A stretch of 64,000 nucleotides of DNA from Chiloscyllium plagiosum. Its lineage: Eukaryota. Location: NCBI RefSeq assembly GCF_004010195.1, contig NC_057733.1:40068441-40132440 (forward strand). Direction: 5' to 3'. The notes under the pieces were generated by a model that was not told the origin of the DNA, made no database searches, and was given only the letters and a program-made list of their open reading frames with translations. This document shows, piece after piece, positions 153 through 57,923 of this stretch. Each line of letters starts with the position of its first letter. The first letter of the stretch is position 1. Both the position numbers and the translations under genes were made by a program.

Positions 153-355
153 CAGCATCCATGGAGAGAATAAGCTAATGTTTTGTGTCTAGATGCCTCT
201 TCATCAGAGCTGAAGAGTCTTCTGGCTGATGAACAGTCATCTAGACACAAAATGTTAGCTTGCTTTCTCACCATGGATACTGTCTGACCTGCTGTGATCT
301 CCAGAATTTGTTGTTTTCAGTACAGATTCCAGCATCGGCAGTAATTTGTTCCTAC
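153..355. mobile_element. Fold-back Penelope-like terminal-repeat fragment with two inverted, decayed hammerhead motifs
   Basis: Arms of about 153-207 and 226-282 are imperfect reverse complements. CTGATGA..GTCATCTAGAC..AAAATGTTAGC lies at 226-259 and its inverse at 174-210. Possible TSD agtatttatc/agtaattatc. Confidence 0.75.
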
Positions 356-1009
356 GAGTAATTATCTAACAGGCTTTCAAGATTGCAAATGGGTTTGCTT
401 TCATTAACATTTCATGTGGTTCATTCTTGATCATAACTCATTATGTTATTAAGTAAAATATCAGTAAAACATAACATATAATATAATACTATTATTAGTA
501 AAATATGTAATACAGATGCTGAACATATCTATATGATGTGGCTGACAGGTTTAAAAAATGCAAGTGTTTGTGGTAAAAAATGGGCAGATGGCAAGCTGGA
601 TATGAAGCTGCTACAATGGAAGGGCACAAAGAGTAATGGTGGGCAAGAGTGTTTAAGACTGGGAAGTTATTTTTGGGTTTCAATAGAACTCAATACTGAT
701 TACTTTGTTTTTGTGGTTACGTATCAATGGGTTAGATTAAAAAACATACAGATAATACAAAAATTGGCTTTGTGCTGAATTATGAGGAGGATACAGACTT
801 CAGGAAGCTGTCAATAGATTTTCCAAGTGGGCAAGGAGTCACAAACAAAATTGAACCTAGAAAAGTATAATGTCATGCATTTGGTGAGGGCAAACTCAGT
901 AAGAGAATACAAAAGAAGGTTATGCTAGAACTATATAAAACATGAGTTAGGCCAAAGCTATTGGGTCCTGTGGACAACCCTGATCACCTTTTTATGATTG
1001 ACATATAAT

Positions 1010-1802
1010 CATAGAACATAGCTATAGAACATTACAGCGCAGTACAGGTCCTTCGGCCCTCGATGTTGCACCGACCTGTCATACCAATCTGAAGCCCATC
1101 TAACCTACACTATTCCATGTACGTCCATATGCTTGTCCAATGACAACTTAAATGTACTTAAAGTTGGTGAATCTACTACCGTTGCAGGCAAAGCATTCCA
1201 TACCCTTACTACTCTCTGAGTAAAGAAACTACCTCTGACATCTGTCCTATATCTATCACCCCTCAATGTAAAGCTATGCCCCCTCGTGCTCGCCGTCACC
1301 ATACTTGGAAAAAGGCTCTCCCTGTCCACACTATCTAACCCTCTGATTATCTTATATGTCTCTATTAAGTCACCTCTCAACATTCTTCTGTCTAACGAAA
1401 ACAGCCTCAAGTCCCTCAGCCTTTCCTCGTAAGACCTTCCCTCCATACCAGGCAACATCCGAGTAAATCTCCCNNNNNNNNNNNNNNNNNNNNNNNNNNN
1501 NNNCAGTACTTTGCATTCCGGTTACTCCGACCAAAGTGAATCACCTCACACTTGTCCGCATTAAACTCCATTTGCCACCTCTCAGCCCAGCTCTGCAGCT
1601 TATCTATGTCTCTCTGTAACCTACAACATCCTTCGTCACTATCCACAACTCCACCGACCTTAGTGTCATCTGCAGATTTTCTAACCCACCCTTCTACGCC
1701 CTCATCCAGGTCGTTTATAAAAATGATGATTTATAAAAATGATGAACAGCAGTGGACCCAACATCGACCCTTGCGGTAAACCACTAGTAACTGGACTCCA
1801 GG
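1010..1802 (-). mobile_element. Young 5'-truncated CR1 LINE, RT C-terminus plus 3' UTR
   Basis: ORFs 1416-1646 (LQRDIDKLQSWAERWQMEFNADKCEVIHFG) and 1105-1458 (MLPGMEGRSYEERL..RGDLIETYKI..FFTQRVVRVWNALP). catagaa-type tail at 1010-1030. Confidence 0.95.
1474..1503. other. Assembly gap (30 N)
   Basis: Run of n inside the CR1 copy. Confidence 1.
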
Positions 1803-2361
1803 ATTTTTATACAGCTTAATATAGGAAAAACCTATTTCTCTTAACAGAAGAGCCAATAACTACAGGACAGAAATTTAAAATAAATGACAGATACATTGGA
1901 GGACAGTTGATCACATCTTCTTATGTTAGAGGGTCTGAAAACTGCTTCCTAATGCAGTGTTGGAGGCAAAAATTCTCATTGTATTTAAATAGTACTTGGA
2001 TAGGGACCAGAAGTGCTAAAGTCTGAAGATGAGCATACCAAAAACTGTAATATGGGATTCAGCTGGATGACTTCATGTCAACTCACATACAATTATACAC
2101 AATGATTCAATTTTCTATGTTTTAATTTGTCACATTTCTATGCATTGTATTATGATTCTTAAAGAGGTGAATTTTTTTTTAAAAGATTTCAATTCCCGGT
2201 GATCTACTTAAAGAATCTCTCAACTACATTTCATGCTTTAAGACATTCACTGTAACAAACAAACTAAAATCAAGATGGCTAAATATTATTTAGAAAACAA
2301 CTGATACACTAAACTTCAGCAAATATATTCCTTGGTAACATTCTAAATCATCATACTTTTA

Positions 2362-2506
2362 CATGATGTGGAGGTGCAAGTGTTGGAGTAGGATGGACAC
2401 ATGTCAAAAGTCACATGACATCAGGGATATAGTCTAACAGGTTTATTTGAAATTACAAGCTTTTGGAGCACTGCTCCTTCATTCGGTGAAATGTGACTTC
2501 TGACCA
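2362..2506 (-). mobile_element. PLE terminal-repeat fragment with decayed hammerhead (AGCT type)
   Basis: Similar to the ends of 4441-5059. The minus strand of 2455-2489 reads CACCGAATGAAGGAGCAGTGCTCCAAAAGCTTGT. Confidence 0.7.
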
Positions 2507-3932: not shown

Positions 3933-4368
3933 AGTTTTGAGAAGATTTGTAGCTCAGGTTGAGGTTTTGGATGTCGGTTTGCCCGCTGAGCTGGAAGGTT
4001 CATTTCTAGACATTTCCTTATCCTACCAGGTAACATTTTCAGTGAGCCTCAGGCGAAGCAATACTGAAAATTCTGACTTTCTATTTGTATGTTTGGGTTT
4101 CTTTGGGTTGGAACTCTATCAACAAACACATTGAGTTAGACCCCATCTACCACCCCCTGAGAAAAGGAACAGGAAGTGACTTCACCACAGGAAATAACAC
4201 CACCACAGGAAATGACATCACCAACTCAAAGAAACCCAAACATATAAATAAAAAGCAGGAATTTTCAGCATTGCTTCACTTGAGGCCCACTGAAGATGTA
4301 ACCTAGTAGGGTAACAAAACGCCTGGAAATGACTTTCCAGCTCAGCGAGCAAACCTACATTCAAAATA
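3933..4368. mobile_element. PLE 3' fragment with inverted terminal repeats, each carrying a hammerhead motif
   Basis: About 3970-4100 is the imperfect reverse complement of about 4235-4362. Internal WNSINKHIELDPIYHPLR peptide matches the GIY-YIG C-terminal tail at about 9810 and 11450. Confidence 0.85.
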
Positions 4369-4494
4369 TTGCTGTGTATTACAGGAGAGAATAAAACTTG
4401 AATCAGATTGGCTTGGCAGAAGTTGCAGCATGTATTTGAACAAAGTTAAAAAACACACAACACCAGGTTATAGTCCAATAGATTCATTTGGAAG

Positions 4495-4529
4495 TATTAG
4501 CTTTCAGAACACTGCTCCTTCATCAGGTA
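4495..4529 (-). ncRNA. Minimal type-I hammerhead ribozyme motif (core intact)
   Basis: Minus strand reads TAC CTGATGA A GGAGC agt GTTCT GAAA GCTA ATA. Stem II pairs fully (WC/GU), AGCT is palindromic, and stem I has one mismatch. Confidence 0.75.
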
Positions 4530-4951
4530 GCTGTGGAGCAGGATCATAAGACACAGAATTTATCGCAAAAGATCACAGTATCATGCAACTGATACTATAC
4601 ATTGAACAAACCTAGATTGCTATTAAGTCTTTCATCTTTTAAAATGTGTTTCAGGTTTCAGTTCATTATTAAGTAAATTCCAGAACTTCTTTCAAATCAC
4701 ATTCTCAAGATAACTTAAGGTTTTATGTAAAAAAAGAAGTGACATATCAGCTCAGACAATGCAGTAAGGTGTAAGGGTAGAGTCTGTCTATATCCAAATC
4801 TTGAGTCAGACTGGTCCTACTTCCAAAGTAGGAATTTATAAAATGCTACATGGATTGACTACCTGCATTGACTCCCTGCAGATTGTGTGCTTTTTGGAAA
4901 AAAAGTACCTGCAAATACAATTCTGCAAATGCAAATTCACCCCATAGACTT

Positions 4952-4979
4952 TGTGTGTGTGTGTGTGTGTGTGTGTGCA

Positions 4980-5019
<40 letters not shown>

Positions 5020-5024
5020 TGTGT
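4952..5024 (+). repeat. Compound (TG)n(GA)n microsatellite
   Basis: Seen directly. Confidence 0.98.
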
Positions 5025-5224
5025 TTGTCCACCCCAGTCCAACACCAACACCTCCACATCATGTATTTGAATAAGGGAACATATAGATTTCAGTTTCTAG
5101 TAATTGAAAATGTCTAATGCATCAACTTAACTGTAGTCTTTGGGGTTGTCATCACTACAAAAAATGCAGTTCAAGTACTGTGGATACTGCTGAGGCTGAT
5201 CAGAGATTGAGACTCAACATGGGA

Positions 5225-5428
5225 AAAGTAAGGTTACCATAGTCCTACCAGAGAATAGGGCTGCTCTTTCATGAGAGAGGTATGACAGGGGTTGGGTTAA
5301 CCTGAGGATCACTGTGCCTCAGGTGAGTGGAGAGGTTAAGACGTTCATGATAGTCTCAGACAGTGCAGGACTTGAAGACACACTGTCAGCCTCACTCTGC
5401 ATAGCAAACCAGCTGTCCAGCTCACTGA
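5225..5428 (-). mobile_element. tRNA-headed SINE, decayed (same family as 30257-30448)
   Basis: Shares ttaacctgagg.tcac....cctcagg.gag.ggagaggtt with 30317-30358. Confidence 0.65.
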
Positions 5429-5899
5429 TTCCCTCTCAACATGGAGAAACCTTCAGATGGCTCTGTCAAAGAATAAGCATTCAGCGTAATAAAAAAAAGT
5501 GTGTATTTTGTCTACTACAATTAATTTTACAAATCTGAAACTTGAGGATACTTGTATTCTGATCACAGCTGATGTTATTACTGGATAAATCAGATCCCAG
5601 ATTAAAATCTGGCTTAATGGACCATGTATTGATTTTATTCAATGAGGTGCTGTTTCACTGAAACACAATCACCTAGCATATAATGCTGCACATCTCATTT
5701 TAATGAAAGAAAGAAGTTCATTATACAAAGTAAAGGAAGATAATATGGAACAAATCCACATATCTCACAATTTGAATGATTTTTGAACACAGTAAAACAT
5801 CAATATTCCATCTACCTCAACTGTATCCCTTGATAGTACTCAAAACAGCAGAAAAAAAACTCCCTGCTCTATCACTTCAATAGTTAGTTTTAGTTAGAT

Positions 5900-6036
5900 A
5901 ATCTGAAGAAGGGGCACTGAACGTGAAACATTAACTCTGCTTTCTCTCCATTGATGCTGCCAGACTTAATGAGTTTCTCCAACAATTTTTGTTTTTGTTT
6001 CAGTTTTCTAATATTTCCAGTTCTTTAGTTTATTTT
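5900..6036 (+). mobile_element. PLE terminal-repeat arm starting with a hammerhead motif
   Basis: CTGAAGA A GGGGCACTGAACGT GAAA CATT AA, followed by the ctctg..ttctctcca.tgatgctgccagac repeat also seen at 18120, 30048 and 39650. Confidence 0.75.
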
Positions 6037-7735
6037 AATGTTCTTCAATGTTTACCATGTCAACTCCTAAAGCTCTCCCAAAAATATATTTGTATTGGCA
6101 CTCCAAGAACTATTTATTCCACCATGTTGTTTTTCAAATAAAGAAAACCATGACTCCAAAAATACTGACAAGTTAATCATTAAACTCCTTCTTACATACT
6201 AACCTAAACTCATATGTCACTAGTTGAAAATCCAATGATATTAATATATATCACACCATAGATCATAGTTGTGTGACTTCATGCTTTAGGCAGTGCCTGG
6301 CACACAACTACGGAATATTTGATCTTTACAGGACTTGAAATGAATGCAACTTGCTGGTGCATTGCCAACAATTTTCCTATTGGTCTAATGCAAAGCCATA
6401 TTATTGATATGCAGTCTTGCAAAATTCACTATATATGCTTCTTTCTTTAATGTAAACACACAAAAAAAATTAAACATTGTCTTAATTTGATTACAGTTTG
6501 TGTTCAAGAATATTTTGTTTTCTATGTACCATATCACATAAAATATTCCATCTCTGTTGTGTATTATTCTTTATGTATATAGGTTATTTAATCCATTTAA
6601 TATGATTTCATCATTGGTAAATAATCACTTCAGAAAAAAAAAATCACATATCGAGTGTACATCTAACATCTGAAGGAACACAAACGATACCACAGGAAAT
6701 TCACTATATATTTGTGATAATATTAAAGCTTGTTGAAGACCTAGGGAACTGAGATTTCCTTTGCTACCATAGCAAGAAACATGAAAGCACATCATGAGAG
6801 TAGGACAGATGGTGTTTATTATCAAGGTCAGATCAGAAACCAAATTTTGATCAATGAATTTTGTTGCACCTCATTTTTCCACAGGATTGTTTGTTTTGAT
6901 CGTCAGTGTCTAAATTCCTTTCTTGACGGCACTGAACTCCCTCTTTCCTAAAATGTTGTCATCTCATTTCTCTTCGTAGCACACTGTGTTGACTTGAAAT
7001 GCCTGGTCATCTTTCTTTTGTGATACCTGTTCCTCATTAAGGCATTGAGTTCTCCATTGGAGACACCATTGAGAAAACTTTGAAGTGTGATTGGATGGAG
7101 TAAGAGGGCATAAAAGGGCAGAATGATCCATGGAAACAGAAAAGAAAAATACGAGAAGATAATTCTAAAAATGGAGCTTAGAAGGAAATGACTGAACACT
7201 TGTGAAACTGATAACAGAGATGAGGAAAGAATACAGTAAATTTGCCAAACAGCAACAATTTAAGTGGAGATGAATATAAATTAACAGGTATAAGTAGAGA
7301 ATTAATGAACGAAATAATAGGGAAATGTTCATAAAAGGAAATGGAAAAGCAATGATTGAAAGAAGAGAAAGCACACTGAATCTTTAAGTCTTACCAGATG
7401 TATTGCCTGGCTGAGTCACTGGAGATCTATCCATCATGAGAATAATACAAATAGAGTGAGGCCCAAAATAAAGGGAGACCAAAATAAATTTTTGTCTTGT
7501 TTCATTATTATTTTGTCATCATACAGGAGAGCACTCAATAACAGCTAATGGCTTTCACTTCTTTAAGCCTACTGTCACTGATTAGGAGAGAGACATACTT
7601 GTTCATTTAGTTTATGCCTTACATTTTGAATGGACTTTCTGAGGATCCATGTCTACAAGTCTACGTAATACTGAAAAGCAGCAGATAATTTTGGAAAAAT
7701 GGTGCCCTAGTTTAATGCCGTTCAATCTGACGACA

Positions 7736-7912
7736 GGGAGAAAGTGAGGACTGCAGATACTGGAGATCAGAGTCGAGAGTGTGGTGCTGGAAAAGCACAC
7801 CAGATCAGGCAGTGTCTGAGGAGTAGGAGAATTGACATTTCGGGCATGAGCCTGGCTTGTACCCGAATCGTCAATTCTCTTGCTGCCTGACCTATTGTGC
7901 TTTTCCAGCACC
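7736..7912. mobile_element. Fold-back PLE-derived element
   Basis: gtgctggaaaagcac..aggcag / ctgcctgacc..gtgcttttccagcac arms. The centre contains a hammerhead stem II remnant. Confidence 0.85.
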
Positions 7913-8521: not shown

Positions 8522-8816
8522 AGGGAGAAAGTGAGGTCTGGAGATCAGAGTCGAAACATCAATTCTCCTACTCCTCAGACACTGCCTGACCTGCTGTGCT
8601 TTTCCAGCACCACACTCTCGACTCTGATCTCCAGTATCTGCAGTCCTCATTTTCTCCCTGTCGTCAGATTGAACGACACTAAACTACGGCACCATTTTTC
8701 CAAAATTATCTGCTGCTTTTCAGTATTACGTAGGCTCTGGCCCAAAACATCGATTTTCCTGCTTCTCGGATGCTGCCTGAACTGCTGTGCTTTTCTAGCA
8801 ACACATTCCCGACTCA
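8522..8816. mobile_element. Composite of PLE arms including an inverted copy of 7661-7842
   Basis: 8552-8733 is the reverse complement of 7661-7842 (8 mismatches in 182 bp by hand alignment). It is flanked by further arm pieces at 8522-8553 and 8734-8816. Confidence 0.85.
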
Positions 8817-8963: not shown

Positions 8964-10024
8964 GTTTGTAAGAAGATTTGTAGCTCAGGTGCTCGTTCTG
9001 TTCGCCGAGCTGGGAATTTGTGTTGCACTCAAACTACTGGACCTCTGCCTCACTACACACTTCACATATGAACAAATCAATGGCACACTCATGGGCTCAC
9101 CCATCTCTGGACTCATAGCAGAAGCTGTAATGCAAAGACTAGAATAAACAGTCTTACTGCAAATTCAACCCAAACTCTGGGTCAGATATGTGGATGACAC
9201 CTTTGTAATCATTAAAAACACAGAAATAGAGAACACACACTGAATCATCAACTCCACAATCACAGGAATCCGATTCACCAGAGAGGAAGAAAAGGACAAC
9301 CAACTCCCATTCCTAGATGTGATGGTACAGAGAACACCGAACGGAGAATTCACCACAAAGGTATACAGGAAAGCCACACACACAGACCAAGTCCTAAACT
9401 ACGAAAGCAACCACCCCAACACACACAAAAGAAGTTGCATCAAGACACTGTTCAAAAGGGCCACAACACACTGCAGCACACCAGAACTGCAAAAAGAGGA
9501 AGAAGAACACCTCTATAAGGTATTTGCCAAAAACGGATACCCCCGCAATTTCATCAACAGATGCCTAAGGGAAAGACAACGGACATGCCACAACCCAAAG
9601 GACGAGCCATGTTACCATACATCAAGAACATTTCTGAACTGACAGCCAGACTACTACGACCACTAGGACTCCCATAACAGCACATAAACCAACAGCCACT
9701 CTCAGACAACAACTCACCAGAACGAAGGACCCGATACCCATATAGGACAAGCCAAACAGAGAACAGCCAGGAAATTCCTAAAGGCATGGCACTCATCCAC
9801 AGATACTATCAACAAACACATTGACCTGGACCCAATATACCGGCCACTACAGCGGACACCTGGAACTGACAACCTGAAGCGGCAGAGACAAACCACTATA
9901 AATGCCGGAGGAAACAACACAGAAGCGCTTCACAGGAGGCTCCCAAGCCCTGAGGATGTCACCGAGATAGGGAATGAAACGTCTGCAACACAAATTCCCA
10001 GCTCGACGAACAGAACCACAACAA
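8964..10024 (+). mobile_element. 5'-truncated Penelope-like retroelement (pseudogenised RT, partial GIY-YIG, terminal repeat, inverted 5' repeat piece)
   Basis: Peptides YEQINGTLMGSPISGLIAEAVMQRLE, WVRYVDDTF, LPFLDVMV, TKVYRKATHTDQVLNYESNHP and NGYPRNFI, with in-frame stops. 8964-9027 is inverted relative to the 3' end. AATCTTAATTAAT at 8946-8958 and 10023-10035. Confidence 0.93.
9947..9986 (+). ncRNA. Minimal hammerhead motif in PLE terminal repeat
   Basis: GCC CTGAGGA T GTCACCG agat AGGGAAT GAAACGTC TGC. Catalytic boxes and the ACGT palindrome are intact; stem II is partly mutated. Confidence 0.7.
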
Positions 10025-11159
10025 TCTTAATTAATCAATTGATTGATTGACTATATCATTGTTCAATCCCAAGACCAAAAAGATGTCCTTCTTACCAAGG
10101 CAACGACCAGTGCAGCTGACTGCTGAACAGACCAGTGACCCATCTCCTCCTCAATGTCCATCAAATGTCATCAGCAACTGAAGACAAAGAAACAGAATTA
10201 TGCTCAATGTTGATTGGCTTCAAGAGTCAAACAGACTAACAACCTTCCAACAATGTCTCTAAAGAGTTCATTTCAATGATGTGAAAGAAATCTGGAAAGA
10301 GATGAAGACAGCATCACCTCATGCTGTAAATAAGCCATCGGCTACTATACCAAGAAACGTCAAAACTGGCTTTATGAGATTGACTGCATCATCCAAGATC
10401 TCATTAACAAGAAGAGAAAACCTCTTTTTAACTGGCAAAACAACATCGCCAGTGAGGCAAAGAGGAGAACCCATCAAACAGCAAAAATGAGAGTTACAAA
10501 GAATAACATGGGAAAGTAAGAACCAGTGGTGGACTGAAAAAGCTCAGGAGCTGCAACTCCTTGTTCACAAATGTGGCACCCAGGGTTTCTTCAATGCTGC
10601 CAATGCAAAGTACTGACCCAGCACACTTGGCCGGCAGCCTTTGCAGAATATGGATGGAACCCTTTTGAGACATGGTGAAAACATCTGTCTTCAATGGAGA
10701 TAACACTTCAATATAATACAATCATTGACGAGGACATGTTTGAGGATATTCCCCCAGTTTTTCATCAATGATGATCTTGGGTTCCCAACTAATATGTCAG
10801 AAGTTGAAACAACCATGAGACAGATGAAGAATGGAAAAGCCGCAGGAGTGGATGGGATTCCAGCAGAGATTTTCAAACTTGTAGCAGCAGAGCTTAGCCA
10901 TCATCTCCCTCAGTATTCCTGAATATCTGAGACAAAGAAGAAATCTCAGGGATGCTTCAGTCATCACCGTCTTCAAGAAAGGAAGCATATTGGACTGTGG
11001 AATTTCCCTATTCTCCATCTCCAAGAAGATCATAGCCAGAATACTCACTAAGTGCCTTCTCCCAGTCTCATCAGAAATCCTTCCTGAAAGTTTGTGAGAA
11101 GATTTGTAGCTCGGGTGCTCATTGTTGTGGTTCTGTTCGCCGAGCTGGGAATTTATGTT

Positions 11160-11199
11160 GCAGACATTTCGTCCCCTGTCTAGGTAACATCCTCAGTGC
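11160..11199 (-). ncRNA. Minimal hammerhead motif, best-preserved copy
   Basis: Minus strand reads GCA CTGAGGA T GTTACCT agac AGGGGAC GAAATGTC TGC. Stem I (GCA/TGC), stem II and the GTC cleavage triplet are present. Confidence 0.8.
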
Positions 11200-11590
11200 T
11201 TGGGAGCCTCCTGTGAAGCGCTTCTGTGTTCTTTCCTCCTGCATTTGTAGTGGCTTGAATCTGCCGCTTCCGGTTGTCAGTTCCATGAACACCAACTAGC
11301 CACGAAACGACACGACCAGCTATCCTTAGTAGCCACACACGCAGATGACAAGCAACATGAGTTCGACTGGGACAACACTACTATTATAGGATAAACCAAA
11401 CAGAGAACAGCCAGGGAATTCCTAGAGGCATGGCACTCATCCACAGATTCAATCAATAAGCACATCGACCTGGACTCAATATACCGACCACTGCAGCGGA
11501 CAGCTGGAACTGACAACCGGAAGCGGCAGATTCAAACCATTACAAATGCCAGAGCAAAGATCACAGAAGCGCTTCACAGGAGGCTCCCAA

Positions 11591-11628
11591 GCACTGAGGA
11601 TGTCATAGACAGGGGACGAAACATCTGC
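11591..11628 (+). ncRNA. Minimal hammerhead motif (2-nt deletion in stem II)
   Basis: GCA CTGAGGA T GTCATAGACAGGGGAC GAAACATC TGC. Confidence 0.65.
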
Positions 11629-13489
11629 AACACAAATTCCCAGCTCGGCAAACAGAACCACAACATCCTTTCTGAAAGCTTGTGAGACTTCCAACCAAAC
11701 TGTGGAACGATGAACATGATTTTCAGTGCTCATTAACTCCAAGAGAAATGCCAGGAATGACACCAACGACTCGACATGGCCTTCCTCGACAAGACCAAGG
11801 CTTTTGACTCAGTTAATCAGGAAGTGCTTAGGAAGACCCTGTCAAAAGTCAGCTGTCCAGTGAAATTTATCATCCTCTGTCTCCTCCATGATGGCTCTCA
11901 CCCATGATAATATGACAGAATCCTTAGATGTTAAATCATTTTTTCTGTCTTAATCACCACCAAGCTGGTGTGCACCTTGTCTACAGGATGGACAATCTCA
12001 ATTGGTTTAAATCCAAGAAAGAAACAATATCGACCTCATTTGTGGAACTTCAGTATATGGCTAATGAAAATTTTTACATCTCGCTTACTGCCTTCGCAGT
12101 AGCATACCGAAGAATGGGTCTCAGCCTCAACGTTTACCTTTACCAACACATCTGGTCAAGTTCTAGTCCATCCTTCCATTAAGATCAATGGAAAGATCAT
12201 CCTAAATGTGGAACATTTCCTTTACCTGGGAAACTAGCTCTTATCCAAGGCTGATATTGATGCGGAGATTCAACATCACAATCAATCAGTGAACACTGCC
12301 TTCGGAAACCTAAGGATGAAAGTCTTTGATGACTATGACATCCACGCTGATACTAAGATACTTGTGTATAATGCAGTCATCCTTCTCCCTCTTCTATATA
12401 GTTCTGAAACTTGGATTACTTATAGATGCAACCCCAAAAACCTTGAGAAGTACCATGCAAGTTGTTTGAGATGGATTCTCTGCATCAGCTGGGAGGACAG
12501 ATGTACTAACATCAGCATCCTTGAAGCAGACAATAGCACCATTATTGATACCATGACCATCAGAAACCAACTCCGCTGGGCCAACCATGAACTTAAGATC
12601 CTTGAGTTCTCATTATCAAAACAGATCATTCAAACAAGAGGAGGACAAAGGCGCTGTTTCAAATACACCCTGAAGGCTTCCCTCAAGAAATGCAACATGG
12701 ATGTCAACACATGAGAGATCCTTGTTCAGAAGAAGCCAATTTGGAAGAAACTCCTGTATGATTCTTTACGAACACCTGTCAGCATTAGGGAATACGGAAA
12801 AGGAACCAGATAAAGGAATCCCAATGAGCTCAAGGCCAAGGACCAATTCCACCTCCTGAAAACACCTGCCAAATGTGTGATTGGAGATATGGCTCTAGGA
12901 TTGGGCTTATCAGCCACAGAACCCACAGAACCCATGACCAGTGACACAGAAGTTTCAAGGTGGGCAATCATAGTAATTTACAAGTGATTGCTGACGATAA
13001 ATTAATTAATCTTAAGGGGCCTCCCTGACCAGAATCCACACAATTATCGTCCCCTCCTATTGACTTCATTGCTGCTTTGTGGGATGGGAGATTCCAAACT
13101 GTGAAATGCTTTGGTTTGTAGTAGTGTAAATTGCGCAGAGTGGTAGGACTAAATGTTCCTAGCCCCTGAATGATCTGGAATTTAATGAGTCAGCTGGGAA
13201 AAGATCGTGCATGGTAAAAACTGAGATCCTCAAGGGTTGAGAAAAAAAGTCTGCGTCTACAACTAAGTGTTGAGCAGTGAAATGAGAATCTCAGTAGTGT
13301 GTGATAAAAGGCCAGTTAGCATATACTTGTCATCAGAACCTAACCTCACCTCTTTGATAAGCAGTTTCCCGTTCTCCTGTGAACCAAATAGAAAATAATT
13401 CCTGACAAGAAAGTCAGAGTGTGTACTTAGCGACTCCAGCTCACCACTTGCTCCTTTAGGCCCCCATCTTGGACAGCAGTCCACAGAAT

Positions 13490-16028: not shown

Positions 16029-16229
16029 CCCAGACCCATTTCCCAAAACTACAGGCAATTTATCATGGCCAATTCACCTAACCTGCACATCTTTGGACTG
16101 TAGGAAGAAACCAGAGCAAACCCGGGGAGAATGTGCAAACTCCACACAGACAGTTGCCCGAGGTAGGAATTGAACCCAGGTCTCTGGTGCTGTAAGGCAG
16201 TGGTGCTAACCACTGAGTCACCATGCTGC
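16029..16229 (-). mobile_element. HE1/V-SINE-like tRNA-derived SINE
   Basis: Minus strand has an A box (TGGTGACTCAGTGG), a B box (GGTTCAATTCC) and the V domain gtctgtgtggagtttgcacattctccc. Confidence 0.9.
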
Positions 16230-16277: not shown

Positions 16278-17900
16278 TAGAAGATAGAACAGCATTAATC
16301 AGGTCATTTGGCCCATCATAGCTGTGCCGCCCATGACACCATTTCTAAATTAATCCCATTTACCTGCATATGCTCCATATCCCTCTATTACCTGCCTGTT
16401 CATAAGTCTGTTTAAACGCCTCTTAAACTTTGCTATGTGCTTGCTTCTACCACCTCTCCTGGCAGTACATTGCAGGCATCTCCCTTCTTCTCTATAAAAG
16501 ACTTTCCTTGCACATCTCCTTTAAAATTTCCCCCTCTCATCTTAAACCTATTCCCCAAGTATTTGACATTTCCAAAAGGGAAAAAAGAATCTGAGTATCC
16601 GTGCCCATAATAATTTTACATACTGCCCTCAGCCTCCAATACTCAAGTGAGAACAATCCAAGTTTGTCCTACCTCTCCTTTTAGCTAATATATTCCAACC
16701 AGGCAACATCCTGGTAAACCTCCTTTGCACCTTCGCCAAAGCTTCCACATCTTTCCCTTACTGTGAAGACCAGAACTGTATACAATACTTCAAATGTGGC
16801 CAAACTAAAGTCTTTTACAGCTCCAGCACGACTTGCTAGCTTTCATGTTCAATGCCCCAACTGATGAAGGCCAACATGCCGCATGCCTTCTTTCCAACCT
16901 TATCCATTTTCAGGAAACTTATGGGCGTTCACCCTAAGATCCCTCTGTATACCAATACTCTTGGCATTTACTGTAGATTTTCCTGTTGCATTTGACCTCC
17001 TAAAATAAATAATTTCACACTTGTCTGGCCATATATACTCCAACTGATTTATATCATGTTGCATCCTTTGATAATTTTCTTCACAATAGTGAGGTGCGGT
17101 GAAAATAGTGCGGTGAAGAAGGCATATGGCGTACTGGCTTTTATTGGTAGAGGAATTGAGTTCCGGAGTACTGAGGTCATGTTGCAGTTGTATAAGACTC
17201 TGGTGCGGCCGCATCTGGAGTATTGTGTGCAGTTTTGGTCGCCATACTATAGGAAGGATGTGGAGGCACTGGAACGGGTGCAGAGGAGGTTTACCAGGAT
17301 GTTGCCTGGTATGGTAGAAAGATCGTATGAGGAAAGGCTGAGGCACTTGGGGTTGTTTTCATTGGAGAAAAGAAGGTTTAGGGGTGACTTGATAGAGGTG
17401 TACAAGATGATTAGGGGTTTAGATAGGGTCGACAGTGAGAATCTTTTTCCACGTATGGGGTCAGCTATTACAAGGGAGCATAGCTTTAAATTAAGGGGGG
17501 GTAGGTATAGGACAGATGTTAGGGGTAGGTTCTTTACTCAGCGAGTCGTGAGTTCATGGAATGCCCTGCCAGTAGCAGTGGTGGACTCTCCCTCATTATG
17601 GGCATTTAAGCGAGCATTGGATATGCATATGGAGGATAGTGGGCTAGTGTAGGTTAGGTGGGCTTGGATCAGCACAACATCGAGGACCGAAGGGCCTGTA
17701 CTGCGCTGTATTCTTCTATGTTCTATGTTCTAATCCACAATTCCATCATTTTCATGTCATTTCTAAACTTACTAATCGGGCCATCTGCCATTTTCACACA
17801 GATCATTGATCTACATTTCAAGCACCAAAGATACCACCACTGATCCTTTCAGAACACCATTGGTCGCAGACCTCCATTAAGAAAAAAACACCTCTCCACA
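16278..17900 (-). mobile_element. Older CR1 3' portion, interrupted by a younger CR1 at 17090-17732
   Basis: Tail at about 16278-16330. RT similarity (..QRMQHDINQLE..PDKCEIIYF) continues collinearly at 17732-17900. Confidence 0.85.
17090..17732 (+). mobile_element. Young 5'-truncated CR1 with uninterrupted RT C-terminal frame
   Basis: ORF to 17652: AVKKAYGVLAFI..LYKTLVRPHLEYCVQFWSPY..WNALP. Followed by a 3' UTR and (TTCTATG)n tail. CpGs retained. Confidence 0.96.
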
Positions 17901-18119: not shown

Positions 18120-18280
18120 AAGTAAAAGAGAGAACTGCAGATGCTGAAGATCTGAAGCAGCAACAGAAATTGCTGGAGAAACTCAACAAGTCTGGCAGCA
18201 TCTGTGAAGAGAAAGCAGAGTTAATGTTTTGAGTCCATTGACAGTTGTGAAGAAAAGCCCCTTGCCTCAAAACAATTAAA
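18120..18280 (-). mobile_element. PLE terminal-repeat arm with short fold-back
   Basis: Reverse complement of the 5900-6036 repeat type. Confidence 0.75.
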
Positions 18281-18674: not shown

Positions 18675-18860
18675 CAAGCATGTGGTGCTGGAAAAGCACA
18701 GCAGGTCACGCAGTATCTGAGGATGCAGTATCCCTCATCATGAAGGACTTTTGCCTGAAATGTTGATTTTCCTGATCCTCGGATGCTACCTGACCTGTTG
18801 TGCTTTTCCAGCACCACACCCTTGACTCTAACCTCCAGTATCTGCAGTACTCACCTTCAC
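18675..18860. mobile_element. Fold-back PLE-derived element with perfect 15-bp TSD
   Basis: CTAGAACTTAAAACT at 18660-18674 and 18861-18875. Inverted arms. Hammerhead remnant ATGAAGGACTTTTGCCTGAAATGTTGA at 18740-18766. Confidence 0.9.
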
Positions 18861-20985: not shown

Positions 20986-21498
20986 TTCATGCTGGGCCCA
21001 ATCGGGTCTGTGCTAGGTCCACTCGAGTCAACACTGGGCCCCACTTCGGTCCATGCTGGGCCTATTCCTGTCCAAGCTGGGCACCACTCCAGTCCATTTG
21101 GGCTCACTCCAGTCGTGCTGGGCCCCACTCCTGTCCATGCTAGGCTCCACTCGAATCCATGTTGGGCCCACTCCAGTCTGTGCTGAGCCCCACTCCAGTC
21201 CATGCTGGGCTACTCAAATCCAAGCTGGGCCCCACTTCAGTCTGTGCTGGGCCCACTCGAGTCTATGCTGGACCCAATCGAGTCCACGCTGGGCCCCACT
21301 CCAGTCTGTGCAGGGCCCCACTCCAGTCCATACAAGGCTCACTCCAGTCCATGCTGGGCCCCACTCCAGAGCATGTTCTCCCCACTCCAGTCTGTGTTGG
21401 CCCCACTCCAGTCTGTGCTGGGCTCACTCCAGTCTATGCTGGGCTCACTCCAGTCTGCGCAAGGCCCAACTCCAGTCCATGCCGGGCCCACTCCAGTC
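20986..21498 (+). repeat. GC-rich minisatellite block 1 (21-22 bp unit GCTGGGCCC(C)ACTCCAGTC[CAT/TGT])
   Basis: More than 20 tandem diverged units, seen directly. Confidence 0.97.
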
Positions 21499-22168
21499 AT
21501 AGAGTCATAGAGTCATAGTCATGAGTGGCAGGCAAACAATTCCAAATTGTCCATGCCGACCAGATATCCTAAATTAATCTAGTCTCATTTCCCAGTACTT
21601 GGCCCATATCCTCCTATTCATAAACCCATCCAGATGCTTTTTAAATGCTGTAATTGTATGAGCCTCCATCACATCCTCTGGCAGCTCATTCCATACACGT
21701 ACCACCCTCTGTGTGAAAAGGAAAGACCTTGGTTATTCACCCTATCCATGCCTTTCATAAGTCTATTAACTAAATCAACCCACTGGCCCACCTGATCAAG
21801 ATCCTGTTGTACTATGAGGTAACCTTCTTCGCTGCTCACTGCACCTCCAATGTTGGTGTCATCTGCAAACTTACTAACTATACCTCTTATGCTCACATCC
21901 AAATCATTTATATAAATGATGAGAAGCAGTGGACCCAGCATTGATCCTTGTGGCACTCCACTGGTGACAGGCCTCCAGTCTGTAAAACAATCCTCCACCA
22001 CCACCCTCTGTCTTCTACCTTTGAGCCAGTTGTTTCAAAATGGCTAGTTCTCCCTGTATTCTATGAGATCTAATCTTATTAACAAGTCTACCATGAGGAA
22101 CCTTGTCAAGCACCTTACTGCAGGCCATACAGATCACATCGACTGCTCTGCACTCATCAATCCTCTTC
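21498..22168 (-). mobile_element. Internally deleted CR1 inserted in the minisatellite
   Basis: ORF 21669-22004 ([31 protein letters not shown]), the KVLDKVPHGRL peptide, and a (catagagt)n tail at 21498-21525. Confidence 0.93.
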
Positions 22169-22171: not shown

Positions 22172-23236
22172 CCAGCTCCAGTCCATGCTGGGCCCACTCC
22201 AGTCTGCGCTGGGCCCACTCTGTGACAGGCCCACTTGAGTCTGTGATGGGCCCACTCGAGTCTATGCTGGGCTCACTCATGTCTGTGCTGCCCCCACTTG
22301 AGTCTGTGCTGAGCCCACTTGAGTCCATGTCAGGCCCACTCCAGTCCATGCTGGGCCCACATGCGTCTGTGTTGGGCCCATTCCAGTCTGCACTGGGCTC
22401 ACTCCAGTTTGTGCTGGGCCCACTTGAGAACACACTGGGCCCACTTGAGTCTGTGCTGTGCACACTTGAGTCTGTGCTGGGCCCACTCAAGTCTGTTCTG
22501 CGCACACTCGAGTCTGTGCTGTGCCTACTAGAGTGTCTTCTAGGAGAAAGTGAGGACTGCAGATGCTGGAGATCAGAGCTGAAAAATGTGTTTCTGGAAA
22601 AGCGCAGCAGATTAGGCAGCATCCAAGGAGCAAGAGAATCGATGTTTCAGGCATAAGAAGGGCTTATGCCTGAAACGTCGATTCTCTTGCCCCTTGGATG
22701 CTGCCTGACCTGCTGCGCTTTTCCAGCAACACATTTTTTACTCGAGTGTCTGCTTGGCCCACTCGAGTTTGCGCTGAGTCCACTCGAGTCCATGCTGTGC
22801 CTCACTCGAGTCTGAGCTGTAGCCACTTGAGTCCATGCTGGGCCCACTTGAGTCTGCGCTGGGCCCAGTTGGGTCCACAATGGGCTCACTTGAGTCTGCG
22901 CTGGGCCTACTCGAGTCTCTGCTGGGCCCACTTGAGTCTGCGCTGAGCCCACACGAGTCCATGCTGTGCCTCACTCGAGTCTGCACTGGGCCCACTCGAG
23001 AACATGCTGGGCCCATTCGAGTCTGCGCTGGGCCCACTCGAGTGTGCACTGAGCCCACTCGGGTCTACGCTCGGCCTACTCAAGTCTGCATTGAGCCCAC
23101 TCAAGTCCACGCTGGGCCCACTGGAGTCTGCACTGGGCCCACTCGAGTCTGCACTGAGCCCAATCAAGTCTGCACTGTGTCCACTCGAGTCCACGCTGGG
23201 CCTCACTCGAGTCTGTGCTGGGCCCAGTCAGGTCCA
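22172..23236 (+). repeat. Minisatellite blocks 2-3 (21-bp unit GCTGGGCCCACTCGAGTCTG[T/C]), split by a PLE fold-back
   Basis: About 40 tandem units, producing LGPLESA heptad pseudo-ORFs. Confidence 0.97.
22540..22739. mobile_element. Fold-back PLE-derived element in the minisatellite
   Basis: Arms of about 76 bp (22582-22657 and 22663-22738) with a 5-nt loop. Partial hammerhead GAAGGGCTTATGCCTGAAACGTCGA. Flanked by tact(a/c)gagtgtct. Confidence 0.92.
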
Positions 23237-26869: not shown

Positions 26870-27680
26870 TTGTGAGAGACAGGGATATTTAGAAGGAATT
26901 CCATATTCATCTAAACAAATCACACAAAGTTAAAAAGCTGGTGTACAACAAATTACAGTATAATTACAGTATAAGAGTAATAATACAACAATACAGGTTT
27001 TGATAAGGCTACATCTGGACTGTTTTGATTCAGATCTATACTTCCTTGGAAGGAGTACAATAAATATAGTCTAACTCTTGGGATGAGGAGATTGGGGTCT
27101 AGATTAGAATGGTGCTGGAAAAGCACAGCCGGTCAGGCAGCATCCGAAGAGCAGGAAAATCGACGTTTCGTTTTGCCCGAAACATTGATTTTCCTGCTCC
27201 TCTGATGCTGCCCAACCGGCTGTGCTTTTCCAGCACCACTCTAATCTAGACTCTGATTTCCAACATCTGCAATCTTCACTTTTGCCTGGATGAGGAGATT
27301 GACCTATGAGAAGAAATTGAGCAAGGTGGAGTGATAACCAATGGAGTAGTAGAAGAAGGAGAAATGATCTAATTGAAATAAGGAACACTCTTAAGGATTT
27401 TGACTGGGTAGGTGCTGAGTAAATATTTCCTTGGCTTTGGAACATGAAGTGACAAGGTGATGAGAAGTTTCTTTCTTGAAAAGATTAAGAAACCTGGAAT
27501 TTCCTACTTGAGAGAGCTGTGGATGGTCAGTCACTGAACATATTCAAGATAGGGATCATTAGATTTTTGGGTGTTAAAGGATATGCTGTTAGTTTGGAAA
27601 GGTAATGTGGAGGTAGGCACTCAGTTTTGGACTTGTTGAATTTGCAGAATGGACTCAAAGGGCCAAATAGCCTATTCCAG
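26870..27680 (+). mobile_element. Old CR1 3' portion containing a PLE fold-back
   Basis: Decayed LIRLHL..LEGVQ..YEKKL..DLIE..NLEF path and a CR1 tail near 27670. Confidence 0.7.
27095..27287. mobile_element. Fold-back PLE-derived element with perfect 14-bp TSD
   Basis: GGATGAGGAGATTG at 27081-27094 and 27288-27301. Arms of about 74 bp (27097-27170 and 27178-27251). Confidence 0.93.
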
Positions 27681-30047: not shown

Positions 30048-30141
30048 TCTGGAGGATCACTGGACTCAAAACATTAACTTTGTTTTCTCTCATCCGATGC
30101 TGCCAGACCTGTTGACTTTCTCCAGCACTTTCTGTATTCAT
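30048..30141 (+). mobile_element. PLE terminal-repeat arm
   Basis: ggatcactggactcaaaacattaac..gatgctgccagacctg, as at 5900. Confidence 0.75.
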
Positions 30142-35199: not shown

Positions 35200-35385
35200 G
35201 ATTAGATTAGATTAGATTCCCGACAGTGTGGAAACAGGCCCTTCGGCCCAACCAGTCCACACCGACCCTTCATTGATTAATCCACCCAGACCCATTTCCC
35301 TCTGACGAATGCACCTAACACTATGGGCAATTTAGCATGGCCAATTCACCTGACCTGCACATCTTTGGATTGTGGGAGGCAACCT
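35200..35385 (-). mobile_element. HE1/V-SINE-like 3' half with (gatta)n tail
   Basis: cagtgtggaaacaggcccttcggcccaac..gcaatttagcatggccaattcacct. Confidence 0.88.
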
Positions 35386-35589
35386 TGTTAGGTACCTTTT
35401 TTTAATCCACTCTAATGCCACCTCCACATGTCTGGCACAACTCACTCCCAAATTTTACCCCATGCGACTAGTGAAAAGTGAATTGGGCAATGAAAAATCA
35501 AACAGGCTTGGTAGCTGTTTGATTTGAAAGTGGGAGGAGGGCTTCAGATTTCAGAGACTGGTCAACACGTTGTCATTGTGCCTCATTTT

Positions 35590-35936
35590 ACATAGAATCC
35601 TAGAATCCCTACAGTGTGGAAGCAGGCATTTTGGCCCATCCAGCTCACACCTCCGAAGAGCATCCCACGCAGACTCACCCCTCTACATGATCCCTGTAAC
35701 CTTGTATTTCCCATGGCTAATCCAACTAGCACATCACTGGACACTATGGGCAATTAGGCATGGCCAGTCAACCTAAACTGCACATTGTTCAACTGTGGGA
35801 GGAAACTGGAGCATCCAGAAGAAACCCACACAGACACTGGAAGAATGTGCAAACTCTACAAACAATTGCCCAAAGGTGGAATCGAACCTGAGTCCCTGGC
35901 GCTATAAGGCAACAGTGCTAACCACTGACCCACCCT
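35590..35936 (-). mobile_element. Full-length HE1/V-SINE-like SINE
   Basis: Minus-strand B box GGTTCGATTCC and A-box region, V domain and CR1-like tail. Confidence 0.9.
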
Positions 35937-36675
35937 GTTTGGGAGAAGGGTGGTGATGAGCCAACCATTAATCCCAACCCTAAGTTTCAGGTTGATGGCC
36001 TTTCATTGGAATGGTTATGGTGAATGGTTAACAACTTCCAACAAATTCCTGCATCTTTTGTTTTTATTTCATTCGCTCTTGTTATTTATCTTAAACACAG
36101 TATTTCTAATCCATAGTTTCTATCTTATTCCCAAAGCTCCCTCTTCCTTCCTCGTTAATTTGCCAGGGGTATTCCTTTCAGAGCTGAAATAAAGCAATGG
36201 GTCTCTTCAATGGCATCACATCCACCATGGCCGTTGGTGAGTTTTCTGGAATGATCACCTGCTTTTCAGCTCAGTCCATCTGGAAGTGAGTGTGTTGCTT
36301 GTATTGCTTGATCCTTTCTTGGTTAAACATTCTGGTGGTGCATTTCAAGGCCACCCAGGCACTCCATCTCTTGCTACACACTACGAGCTCCACACCAGAC
36401 ACTGCTCATTGCCTCTAACAAATCTCCCAACCTCTTTACTCAGCTCCACCCACAACCCTCTCCCTGGAGATGTCAGCAAAGCACAAAGCTGCTTTTCCCC
36501 CCATATACTTACACACTATTTCCATTTAAATCATCATCCAATGATGACATGTTTTTGTCTGGAAGGTGAAGGTCATGCTTTGGTAGTTGTTCAGATGAAC
36601 ATAAGTCCTTCCCTGTTTTAAAATACTTTAGGTTTAAGCTCTCTTGGATTTGCTGTTGTTTCCCACAAAGAGAGA

Positions 36676-39649: not shown

Positions 39650-39852
39650 TGAAGAAACTCAGCAGACTTGCAGGGATCTGTGCAGAGAGAAACAGAGTTA
39701 ATGTTTCAAGTCCAGCTTCAAAGAGGAGTCATCATGGATTTGAACCGTTAACTTGTTTCTCCCTCCACAGATCCTGCCAAACCTGCTGAGTTTCTACAGC
39801 GATTATTGTTTTTTTTATTTCAGATATCCAGCATCCGCAGTATTTTGTTTTT
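39650..39852. mobile_element. Fold-back PLE-derived element
   Basis: agaaactcagcag..gatctgtg.agagagaaacagagttaa / ttaacttgtttctccctccacagatc..ctgctgagtttct arms around a hammerhead remnant. Confidence 0.85.
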
Positions 39853-45212: not shown

Positions 45213-46544
45213 TTGATAAGCTCAGTGTAAATATTTAAAAAAGCACAGTTTAAGTGCAGTACTTAGAGCCACGATATCTGTATGAATTATATATAGACAA
45301 CGAGGAAATCAATTTGTGAACACATGCCAGTCAAGCTTAAAATCTGAAATAATTTGAATAAATAAACTTGACATAAAATAATGTAGCTCTGCAATCTGGC
45401 AAAAGTGTCAAATCAAAGCAAACAAGTTAAATAATGAATGAACTATGATTGGCATCATGCAGTGAAGACCTTTGTCCACTTACAGTCTTGTCTGTGATGT
45501 GTTGTATTTGTAACACCGAAGTCTTTTTATACATTAGACATAATATTTTGATGTTGAGAAAAAAATCTGATTTTCCCATGAAGATTAAATCATGAGTTCA
45601 GAATCTTGCTGATGAGCAATGACTTCATTATTTCCATATATTTGCATATCATTAATAGTCCAAATTATATAATTTCTACGCAGCTTCCAATTCTTCTCTT
45701 GTTCGCTAAGAAAGTAGATGTACTCAGTTCTCAACCTGAAAGTCAGAGAGGGTGGCCTACAAGAGCTGCTCAGTATTTGCCTCTCCAGGTCTTAATCCAA
45801 CTCTCTATTTACTGATGTTTGTCTGCATGCTGCATGGACACCGTCCTCCTCCAACCTTCATCCTTGCAGATTGGCATTGCCAAATCATGTGCCTGCCCTC
45901 GGAGAAAAACTCAGATACCACTTCAGCCCTTCAGGATTTCAATTTGGAACACAAGGACAACTTTGTCTTGCATACAATTACCAATCTGTTTTGCTTGCAC
46001 AGAGACACACGTCTCATGCTGGCACACTGGCTGTGGCTCATAGTTTCATTTCTTAGGGCACACTTTCCTTTGTGCTTACTTGGACATAGTCAGCCTCGAT
46101 GGCTTGTACTGCTCTTCAGAGCTGGGGGAGAGGCAGACAGCTTGTTAAGGTCTGGTGCGCTGAACTGGCAAGGGAGTAGACATGTTGGTGCATATGGCAT
46201 CTGGCAATGTCAGTGTCATACCCACAGCCTGTATCAGCAGCTAATGTGGCCAACACATGGCACGTGTTTCCACTGAATGACCACATTGGAAAGTGAAAAG
46301 GGACCACTTCTTAGTGTGGTAAAGATAGACAGTGGTCTCTCAGGAGGAGAGCACTTTTGCCTCTCCTGTCACTCAGTTACATGAGATGGCTGCTGTGGAG
46401 GCTGTTTGAATACTTTGAGACAAAAGCCAGATGTTTGCATGAGGAAAGTTACCATGGGGATGGGGAGTCATGAATCTCACTGAGGAAAGAAACACCGCCA
46501 AAAAATGGAAAAATGCTGGCCCTTTCATTCCCATTTCTCCACAT

Positions 46545-46838
46545 CGTAGAATCCTTACAGTGCAGAATGAGGCCATTCAACCCATCACATCTGCACTGAC
46601 CCTCCAAACAGCATCCCACCCAGACCCAGCCCCCTACCCTATAATCCACTAGGCCTACACATCCCTAGACATTATGGGGTAATTTAGCATGGCCAATCTA
46701 CCTAATCTGTGCATCTTTGAACTATGGTAGGAAACCAGAACACCTGCTGGAAACTTATGCAGATACAATGAGAACGTGCAAATTCCATAGTCACCCAAGG
46801 CCTAAACTAAACCCAGATCCCTGACATTGTGAAGCTGA
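46545..46838 (-). mobile_element. HE1/V-SINE-like SINE
   Basis: aatttagcatggccaatctacctaatctgtgcatctttg..gaacgtgcaaattcca. Confidence 0.85.
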
Positions 46839-55731: not shown

Positions 55732-55822
55732 TGTCATTATGCACCTCTGGAGAATGTGGGACTTGAACCTAGGCCTCCTGGATCAGAGGTTGGGACATTG
55801 TCTCTGCATCACAAAACTCCTT
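55732..55822 (-). mobile_element. Short tRNA-derived SINE head
   Basis: Minus-strand B box GGTTCAAGTCC. Similar to 61755-61830. Confidence 0.65.
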
Positions 55823-57676
55823 CACTACATTTTCAGTGATATGTATTAAATTGCTGCCACAGTCTTTACAGATGGACACTTACAGAACAGGTAGAGGTCA
55901 TTTGACTATAACAAGTCAATCAGTACACCAAGTACAATTATAATTTCTCAATCTACATTAGGTGTATAAAAAACTCTTAAAAGGAAATAAACAGTAAACA
56001 TATTTATATACGAGGTAGTGGCTGATAGGTCTGCTGTAGTAATATTTATTAGAACATTGAATTTAACTTACTGTGTTATTTTCGCAGAACCTTCTGTGAA
56101 GGAGAAACTGATTCTTTCATTTATAAACTGTAATGATTTTATCAATCATCAACTTATTAACATAATCGAATGTCTTCAAATGCTTTTTTGTTATTTGATT
56201 TATATTTGTTAAATCATTGTGGAAACATAAAAGCTGCAATTATTCATTTCATGCTTTATTATATTGACAAATAAATACATATGACATTGCAGAACAATTG
56301 TTTTATAGTGGATAGGGATGTTTAGAGCAAATTTATATTTTTGTCACTTACTGGGCCTTAAAAGGTTAACTACAACTGTTCTGACATGTTTTCAGCATCT
56401 TCCTATCCACTTTGAGTGGAAAGTTATTTTAACTAGCAATAGACTGACCAATCCCCTTCTGTCAATAAGGGAAAGTTTGTCTGAGGTATTTCTGAAATAG
56501 ATTGGCAATTAGACTCCAGAGATTGAAAATGTTATTTCACTAGGAATATTTTCCACTTACTTGCTACTATACTCAAGGCACAATTTGTTCTTGAAGAGTT
56601 TATTTTTCCTTGCTCTCCCTTGATGCCGCAGTATGGTGATTTGCATCTGATTAACTTAACCATTTCCCTCCATATTTAACTAACACAGTTCCTCCATCTC
56701 AACAGGCCAATTTGATCATTACCTCTCGATAAAAACCGCAGCTAATACATTAATGAATATGTTTTTCAAAGGGTGGGAGATAGTTTTGGCAGATTAAGAA
56801 TAAGCCTTTCATTACCCTTACAAGAATACAGTTAGTTCAGTACAGAAATGTTGTAATGTTCTGGTTTCAATGTGCTGTCATTGTATTGAAACATCTTTAG
56901 CTCCATCTTAAATACTGATAAAGTTGTTATTTGTTATTAGGTCAATCAATAAAACATTTCTTACAATAGAAAACAATAAAATGTTTGTTTTGAATATTTA
57001 TTCAAAGTTATAAATATTTTGAAACGTTTAATTCCAAAGTAATAAACACCATTAACATTCATACATAATTCCAGGGAAAACATATATAAAATGAACAGTT
57101 GTAAGGGGTTTAAGAGAAGAGAGATCAGATTTAGTTGGCTTCATAATGAAGATAAAGAGCTATCAAATTGAGGCAGAAATTTAATTTGCATGTCACAGAT
57201 TACAAAAGTATTTAAATCGAGGGATTTTGGCAATTTTTTTGTAACTGAGTCTACTGTACAGCATATTAAGTTATTTAATAGGGCATGAATGACATGGAGA
57301 ATGGTGAGAAATATGGCAGAATCAAGTGAGAGGTCTGGTGGAGTCTGTCTCAGGATTAGGAGCAAGTTGTTGCATCCTTTAACTACTTCCAGATATCAGT
57401 GAGATTTAAAGACCGGAGTGGTGGTTTGCCTTATCTTGCTCATTAATGGCCTTGTTTACTCTATATCTTGCCTCCCAAATTTACAGCTTCCTATCCTACC
57501 ATTCACTGCAAGCAAACGAGACACAAAATTCTCAACGTGAAAGTTAGGGTGGGTGCCTGGTGATTTCAGTTCACTGATGGTTACAAAGAGGCTCCATGTT
57601 TCTCACAACACAACAACAGCAGAGGGCACAATTGGTGGACACAAGCACCCCCACCTTAACATTGGCATCCAATAAT

Positions 57677-57923
57677 AGATGTAGGTTTGCTCGGTGAGCT
57701 GGAAGGTTCATTTTCAGACGTTTCATCACTATACTAGGTAACATCTTCTGTGACCCTCCGGACAAAGAACTGCTGCTGTTTCCTGCTTTCTATTTATATG
57801 TTATATAAACACTGAAGACGTTACCTAATATGGTGATGAAATATCTGAAAATAAACCTTCCAGCTCAGTGAGCAAACCTAAATCCAGAACCTCAACCTGA
57901 GCTACAAATCTTCTCAAAACTTG
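57677..57923. mobile_element. Fold-back PLE terminal-repeat pair with perfect 15-bp TSD
   Basis: TTGGCATCCAATAAT at 57662-57676 and 57924-57938. Arms at 57678-57752 and 57810-57884. Same family as 3933-4368. Confidence 0.93.
57810..57847 (+). ncRNA. Minimal hammerhead motif (core intact, ATAT palindrome)
   Basis: CA CTGAAGA C GTTACC taatat GGTGAT GAAATATC TG. Confidence 0.7.

Follow-up and report, generated by a model that had tools for sequence, protein, structure and literature searches.

The window studied here is a stretch of 64,000 nt on contig NC_057733.1 (positions 40,068,441 to 40,132,440) within the 3.56-Gb genome of Chiloscyllium plagiosum. It contains short repeats with the minimal hammerhead ribozyme known from the ends of Penelope-like elements (PLEs). 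An earlier note, made from the letters alone, had listed such motifs at 19 positions and sorted them into about six families, A to F. All 19 positions coincide with profile hidden Markov model (HMM) matches to hammerhead-bearing repeats, and the motifs are genuine remnants of the Penelope-terminal minimal hammerhead, mostly broken here. We consider it very probable that they are the terminal hammerheads of at least three Penelope-like lineages, scattered as short, often head-to-head end fragments, with selection acting on the source elements. The kind of motif, its abundance and its inverted pairs have already been published by Cervera and de la Pena in 2014 (PMC4209133). New here is a contrast between clades: a stop at the 5' border of the ribozyme in Neptune-type copies versus none in Poseidon-type copies.

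Hammerhead remnants in the window and in the genome

Copies were detected by profile HMMs grown from natural copies and run on the window and on a comparison sample of 120 stretches of 10 kb, chosen at round coordinates on 26 contigs (1,157,123 non-N bases). The families covered are those from these profiles and from a scan with a strict structural descriptor. Names with an L number refer to individual loci. The window holds 27 hammerhead-bearing copies (E 3.8e-5 to 5e-25), which are given here in window coordinates together with the coding remnants next to them:

153–216, minus: D-type end fragment with G12-to-A, head-to-head with 225–298 (profile HMM)
225–298, plus: D-type end fragment with G12-to-A (profile HMM)
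2412–2492, minus: C-type end fragment with three core lesions, starting ~8 nt 5' of the core
3967–4055, minus: B-type end fragment with mutated G8, paired in inverted orientation with 4280–4363
4049–4180, plus: Poseidon-type C-terminal coding remnant running into a B motif (tblastn with the L182 ORF, 45% identity)
4280–4363, plus: B-type end fragment, G12 and U16.1 mutated
4454–4538, minus: C-type motif with intact core and broken stem I, ~326 nt of element upstream
5897–5976, plus: E-type motif with intact core and broken stem II
7789–7906: two F-type fragments head-to-head (7853–7789 minus, 7854–7906 plus), both without the 5' core box
8550–8605, plus: F-type fragment without the 5' core box
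8732–8795, plus: F-type fragment without the 5' core box
8993–9027, minus: A-type tail fragment, inverted partner, its first base just after the predicted cut site (L151)
9028–9963, plus: Poseidon-type coding region (reverse transcriptase end and endonuclease), 5'-truncated and frameshifted (tblastn with the L182 ORF, 71–95% identity)
9936–10026, plus: A-type motif with intact core, stem I broken beside the core
11120–11210, minus: A-type motif with intact core in which both stems can form; no other copy of the window is as complete
11281–11604, plus: C-terminal coding remnant running into an A motif (86% identity)
11580–11666, plus: A-type motif with intact core, 2-nt deletion in stem II
18179–18244, minus: E-type fragment without the 5' core box
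18690–18809: F-type head-to-head pair (18724–18690 minus, tail; 18730–18809 plus, core damaged)
22596–22724: two head-to-head F-type copies, both with truncated core, that form a long perfect hairpin
27117–27231: two head-to-head F-type copies, each lacking the 5' core box
30053–30119, plus: E-type fragment with degenerate 5' box and G12-to-A
39655–39793: E-type head-to-head pair, both degenerate
57675–57761, minus: B-type motif, U4 mutated, inverted partner of 57806–57887
57806–57887, plus: B-type motif with intact core, 2-bp stem I and decayed palindrome

All 12 core positions are kept in six of the 27 copies. At five of the 19 listed positions (18221 and 7835 on the minus strand, 30048 and 27171 on the plus strand, and 39697) no 5' core box is aligned, and at 22657 on the plus strand it is partial. 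The strict descriptor found no match in the window at a stem I of at least 3 bp and one at 2 bp or more; the copy at 11120–11210 fails it only because of an A.G mismatch that is fixed in stem II of family A. An Rfam scan of the window gave no hammerhead match at E<=1, and the only matches were miRNA-like ones lying on palindromes.

The sample contains 379 copies, from which about 21 are expected per 64 kb. The 27 copies of the window are therefore ordinary, and the high local density claimed before is not borne out. The very large numbers expected for the whole genome were found: extrapolation from the sample gives roughly 1.2 million remnants. The strict descriptor matched the sample 33 times at a stem I of at least 3 bp and 72 times at 2 bp or more, whereas 20 dinucleotide shuffles gave 0 and 0.05; the corresponding genome estimates are 101,000 (70,000–142,000) and 221,000 (173,000–279,000). 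A 4-nt palindrome replaces helix III in 62 of the 72 matches, in support of the minimal type-I architecture. Exact motifs were counted in the whole genome for A (3,738), F (69,589) and C (12,343), at least 85,670 together, and the reversed patterns used as controls gave 0.

Three structures involving these copies may be recorded. An inverted 185-bp duplication (7658–7842 and 8552–8736, 95% identity) spans an F tail and flanking DNA. The inverted A pair lies within an older long interspersed element (LINE) and is enclosed by a direct repeat of ~22 bp with two differences (11077–11098 and 11665–11687), possibly a target-site duplication. Arrays of a 21-bp GC-rich unit at 20988–21498, 22186–22534 and 22740–23226 (17–24 copies each, ~73% matches) are broken by a LINE fragment and an F palindrome.

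Lineages, stem covariation and Penelope coding sequence

During profile growth A and B converged on one profile and D, E and F on another; hence the six hand-built families reduce to three lineages, A/B, C and D/E/F. Clustering yields 11 usable subfamilies. The motifs reconstructed by hand agree with the majority base at each column in copies from other parts of the genome, including the palindrome in place of stem III, and the core boxes and the non-G cut base are conserved in the majorities of the 11 subfamilies (C1 has CpG-type decay at G8). The shared core that had been described thus holds for the families, while most window copies have lost part of it. Two traits had been missed, the A.G mismatch in stem II of family A and a stem I of only 2 bp in most F subfamilies.

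The covariation of stems between families that the earlier note had described was recovered. Over the 11 subfamilies 74 of 77 stem positions are paired, which none of 100,000 permutations of the arms equalled, and with six coarser units 40 of 42 pairs form (1 of 720 permutations); since related subfamilies are not independent, these fractions are not probabilities. The three unpaired positions are the stem II mismatch of A and the third stem I pair in two F subfamilies. A further subfamily related to E/F and absent from the window (L140:4188, L127:9181, L129:5315) has a 4-bp stem II and a 3-nt loop.

Coding remnants upstream of the motif in each lineage bear out its Penelope origin. The motif stands in a PLE terminal setting in A (L182, at both ends), B (L150), C (L119) and F (L098, L134, L189–218), and in the window coding pieces of A (9028–9963, 11281–11604) and B (4049–4180) were seen. 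The near-full-length family A element L182 (L182:4413–6931, minus strand) starts exactly at C3. The first methionine codon (AUG) of its 222-codon frame falls inside the motif, and the stop codon of its 658-codon frame, separated from the former by a frameshift, lies in stem-loop II of the 3' motif. Its Atlas neighbours carry RVT_1 and HTH_animal and, in a minority, GIY-YIG; for family A the latter domain was recognised by eye and from these neighbours. The F-linked L098 and L134 show reverse transcriptase (RT) motifs, a CX4CxxC linker and a GIY-YIG-like end, and such an end is also present in the C-linked L119. A linker of the CX2-5CxxC type was seen in L098 and L140 and none for C; it occurs in Nematis as well. 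BLASTP between A and F proteins is weak (E 0.033), and Pfam found nothing on seven of eight window frames. A long open frame at L181 turned out to be an N gap and was dropped; that of L182 is real.

Judged by these motifs, A and B would be Poseidon-type and C and D/E/F Neptune-type, and all listed motifs appear to be 3' end fragments of PLEs. Neptune and Nematis elements share with the copies described here the linker that joins RT to endonuclease (L098), inverted 5'-truncated copies lying side by side and an optional tail, and differ in that no linker was seen in family C and that the clade is here named by motifs, not by a tree (PMC8557442). This last point weighs against the assignment, as do three others: the RVT_1 scores lie below the curated cut-off (L182, 29.4 bits against 29.6, E 8.3e-7; L134, E 0.0016), Pfam called no GIY-YIG on any scanned fragment, and D and E proper are tied to coding sequence only via the 3' flank that they share with F and via the related subfamily (L140).

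Decay, pairing and folding

The 379 sampled copies fall into 124 truncated within the core, 131 mutated in the core and 124 with an intact core, so that 255 cover the core and CpG decay is one fate among three, each accounting for about a third. By a looser rule 270 copies span the core and 146 of these are broken; 62 carry the CpG-type change G12-to-A, in 33 as the sole lesion. That most copies were inactivated by CpG decay, as had been proposed, is thus overstated. Divergence is 0.20–0.36 at CpG positions, 0.03–0.10 at non-CpG core positions and 0.04–0.13 in the flanks, and the decay is near-neutral. The core is 20–28% less diverged than the flanks, which is not strict neutrality and counts against the reading given at the outset; this lower divergence may be mostly detection bias.

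A head-to-head partner lies within 1.5 kb in 194 of the 379 copies, and only 16 of the 124 core-intact copies have an intact neighbour on the same strand within that distance. On these counts the ribozyme reservoir that had been envisaged is not demonstrated. Head-to-head pairing buries the motif in a long hairpin: the pair at 22596–22724 folds as a single one of -140 kcal/mol (z -17.8). In four natural intact copies the monomer hammerhead fold lies 0–5 kcal/mol above the minimum, and in all four the double-hammerhead fold lies 8–17 kcal/mol above that of the free dimer, a result unfavourable to action as a dimer. These energies agree with the weak activity of dimers (PMC4209133) and with the dependence on protein (PMC11167929) reported elsewhere.

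The minimal hammerheads of PLEs (PMC4209133) have the same core boxes, the same extra base before stem II, a G-C or G.U pair opening stem II and a palindrome for helix III. They likewise occur in many families per genome, mostly as solo copies, with inverted pairs 100–700 bp apart, and nearly identical layouts are described there from fish, coelacanth, frog and turtle. Differences are the mismatch in A, the short stem I of most F copies and the number of motifs, for which ~4,000 were given in coelacanth and ~9,000 in Xenopus by methods different from ours. Shark minimal hammerheads were found neither in the one supplement of that paper searched nor by a literature search conducted mostly without subscription papers.

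The window has further features. A recent tandem duplication of 194 bp lies at 61750–62137 (98% identical), and another short interspersed repeat occurs at 16037–16225, 35213–35937, 46543–46787 and 58841–59180 (68–85% alike). Fragments of LINE reverse-transcriptase ends are located at 1012–1521, 16996–17732 and 21669–22034, the last with RVT_1 at E 9.5e-8; the LINE fragments of the window resemble those known from cartilaginous fishes.

Ends of the copies and the copying of the elements

End positions are numbered from C3 = 0. The 5'-end analysis covers A, F and C, as the permissive alignment of E over-extended; its tally omits copies with N or short flanks, and tail-only fragments are under-detected. 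Two preferred 3' ends, ~35–40 nt apart, exist in all lineages: at +74–76 and +110–114 in A, near +95–100 and +135 in F and E, and near +85–95 and +125–135 in C.

At the other end, the interval from -10 to +4 contains the starts of 82 of 188 copies in F and of 28 of 72 in C, compared with 4 of 188 and 0 of 72 at the cut site. F copies begin most often at -4/-3, with the first base of stem I. Upstream of the short copies lies an inverted partner (48 F, 14 C) or DNA common to at most two others; 34 of the 82 short F copies and 14 of the 28 short C copies lack a directly adjoining inverted partner. Thirty F loci picked by their ORF-side sequence gave 13 starts at -7 to +4, 11 further upstream and none at the cut site. 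Microhomology with stem I may account for the four F copies at +28. In a young Neptune-type F subfamily, genome counts made with one 3' anchor held in place and a second anchor of 10 nt shifted upstream fall from 15,323 (+6) to 9,056 (-4; one minor variant is missed here), 4,663 (-14) and 4,231 (-34). Over 20 nt at the 5' border of the ribozyme 70% are lost, and over the following 20 nt 9%, so that the two rates differ 12-fold. The independent F elements L209 and L210 both begin 306 nt upstream of the core, possibly a second start or stop site.

Family A behaves differently. Only 2 of 63 new copies (71 examined, six duplicates and two with N removed) and 3 of 35 in the sample start at -10 to +4, and there is no 5'-border stop. 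Of 41 A copies reaching the cut site 39 run through it, so their templates were uncut or religated. A first set of 30 copies had hinted at ends at the cut site itself: 24 could be resolved (six had N or a contig end), and four of these began at +32 to +35. The hint was not replicated in the new set (2 of 63, 1.1 expected, P 0.30). Family A resembles the Poseidon element PAc of Anolis in that the ORF opens at stem II within the motif, the cut site lies 26–28 nt past the start codon and two internal priming points set the tail, and differs from it in having the stop codon inside the motif as well (PMC11167929). That work tested a Poseidon element only, whereas the stop zone described here belongs to Neptune-type families; its supplements show read ends at PAc, which may bear on the 5' ends. 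Our literature search, of the scope given above, found no report of a 5'-border stop.

How may such copies arise? The scattered fragments of the window are likely inert where they are located, and selection has likely maintained the fold in the source elements alone. The ribozyme would act in tandem transcripts of the source element, most genomic copies would be made from uncut or religated RNA, as the read-through of the cut site suggests, and reverse transcription would start internally at two tail points, as in the lizard element (PMC11167929). For the Neptune-type families measured, F and C, we see an even chance that the RNA begins at the 5' border of the ribozyme. Priming at the nearby 5' tail would then yield run-off complementary DNAs (cDNAs) of 100–140 nt, and both the pile-up of 5' ends and the excess of solo motifs would follow. 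A more far-reaching version, which we put forward only tentatively and hold to be rather unlikely, places the RNA start at the first bases of the ribozyme, with RT primed 100–140 nt downstream, so that a retrovirus-like strong-stop cDNA is formed. It would either integrate, producing solo motifs and palindromes, or jump to the identical 3' repeat, where synthesis would continue.

In E, F and the related subfamily the modal F start lies in a context that we take to be Pol II initiator-like, judged by a short consensus, which lends slight support to an RNA start. A poly(A) RNA run from an organism under the same label contains sequences of A and F; its reads on L182 end in two small clusters, at 6919 and 6931, neither at the cut site. 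From another sequencing run no reads aligned. Other results argue against an RNA start at the border: the stop zone is ~20 nt wide and not a single base, family C shows the pile-up and at that offset lacks anything initiator-like, a cap-derived G at the junction is not significantly favoured (9 G vs 6 A), and no end pile-up was seen on the F element L092 in the RNA run, whose library cannot map 5' ends.

For the start site alone, an explanation with odds a little short of even is that RT stalls, or the cDNA folds back, at the 5' border because of structure, bound protein or stem I microhomology, and that no RNA end lies there. The breadth of the stop zone is in its favour, as are the similar chances of a stop among F copies reaching +4 (82 of 143) and at the upstream repeat (13 of 24), and the palindrome L114, which joins -4 to +28 via the stem I complement. 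However, an RT moving 3' to 5' on the RNA would reach the stop only after passing through the structure, family A shares the fold and shows no stop, and the short F and C copies include many that directly adjoin no inverted partner.

It is improbable, though worth considering, that the motif is kept for another job, as promoter, start codon context or protein-binding fold, and seldom cuts in the animal. The crossing of the cut site and the start and stop codons within the family A motif would suit this, and in the lizard element insertion in vitro did not require cleavage, nor were RNA ends seen at the cut site (PMC11167929). Yet three distant lineages whose stems differ have retained every catalytic core base and a non-G cut base, cleavage by the lizard motif does occur, but only with the element's protein (PMC11167929), and religated circles would also read through.

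Still less probable is that the short copies are non-autonomous retrozymes, multiplying as tandem units or as RNA circles of their own. Non-LTR retrozymes have Type I hammerheads related to Penelope ends (PMC7229834; bioRxiv 10.64898/2026.07.22.740005), from which they derive, and were found in the sole chondrichthyan sampled in the latter work; here, 27 of 156 D/E/F copies have a same-strand nearest neighbour. But retrozymes are head-to-tail tandem units (bioRxiv 10.64898/2026.07.22.740005), whereas no head-to-tail array of units each with a hammerhead exists in the window, our copies occur singly or head-to-head, their ragged 5' ends lie away from the cut site, and their upstream extensions lead to Penelope coding sequence. 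That the copies form a working host ribozyme pool, cutting host transcripts and pairing in trans, is very improbable, since the great number of exact motifs and the A and F sequences in poly(A) RNA are opposed by the near-neutral decay, the scarcity of intact same-strand neighbours, a 4-bp palindrome as the only pairing between copies, and monomers that did not cut in vitro (PMC4209133).

The motif finding itself extends the result of 2014 to a shark-type genome, with larger numbers. The rebuilding of the pseudo-long terminal repeat (pseudo-LTR) and the role of the ribozyme in PLEs were called open questions in PMC2377424 and PMC8557442. For the start-site question, young families with more than 15,000 near-identical copies offer a precise site, -13 to +6 around the core. 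If the strong-stop and jump proposal were true, it would explain why ~55–70% of the copies stop at one border on each pass and would provide a mechanism for the regeneration of pseudo-LTRs, and the copies scattered over the genome would be a fossil primer-extension map, with uncut RNA as the template.

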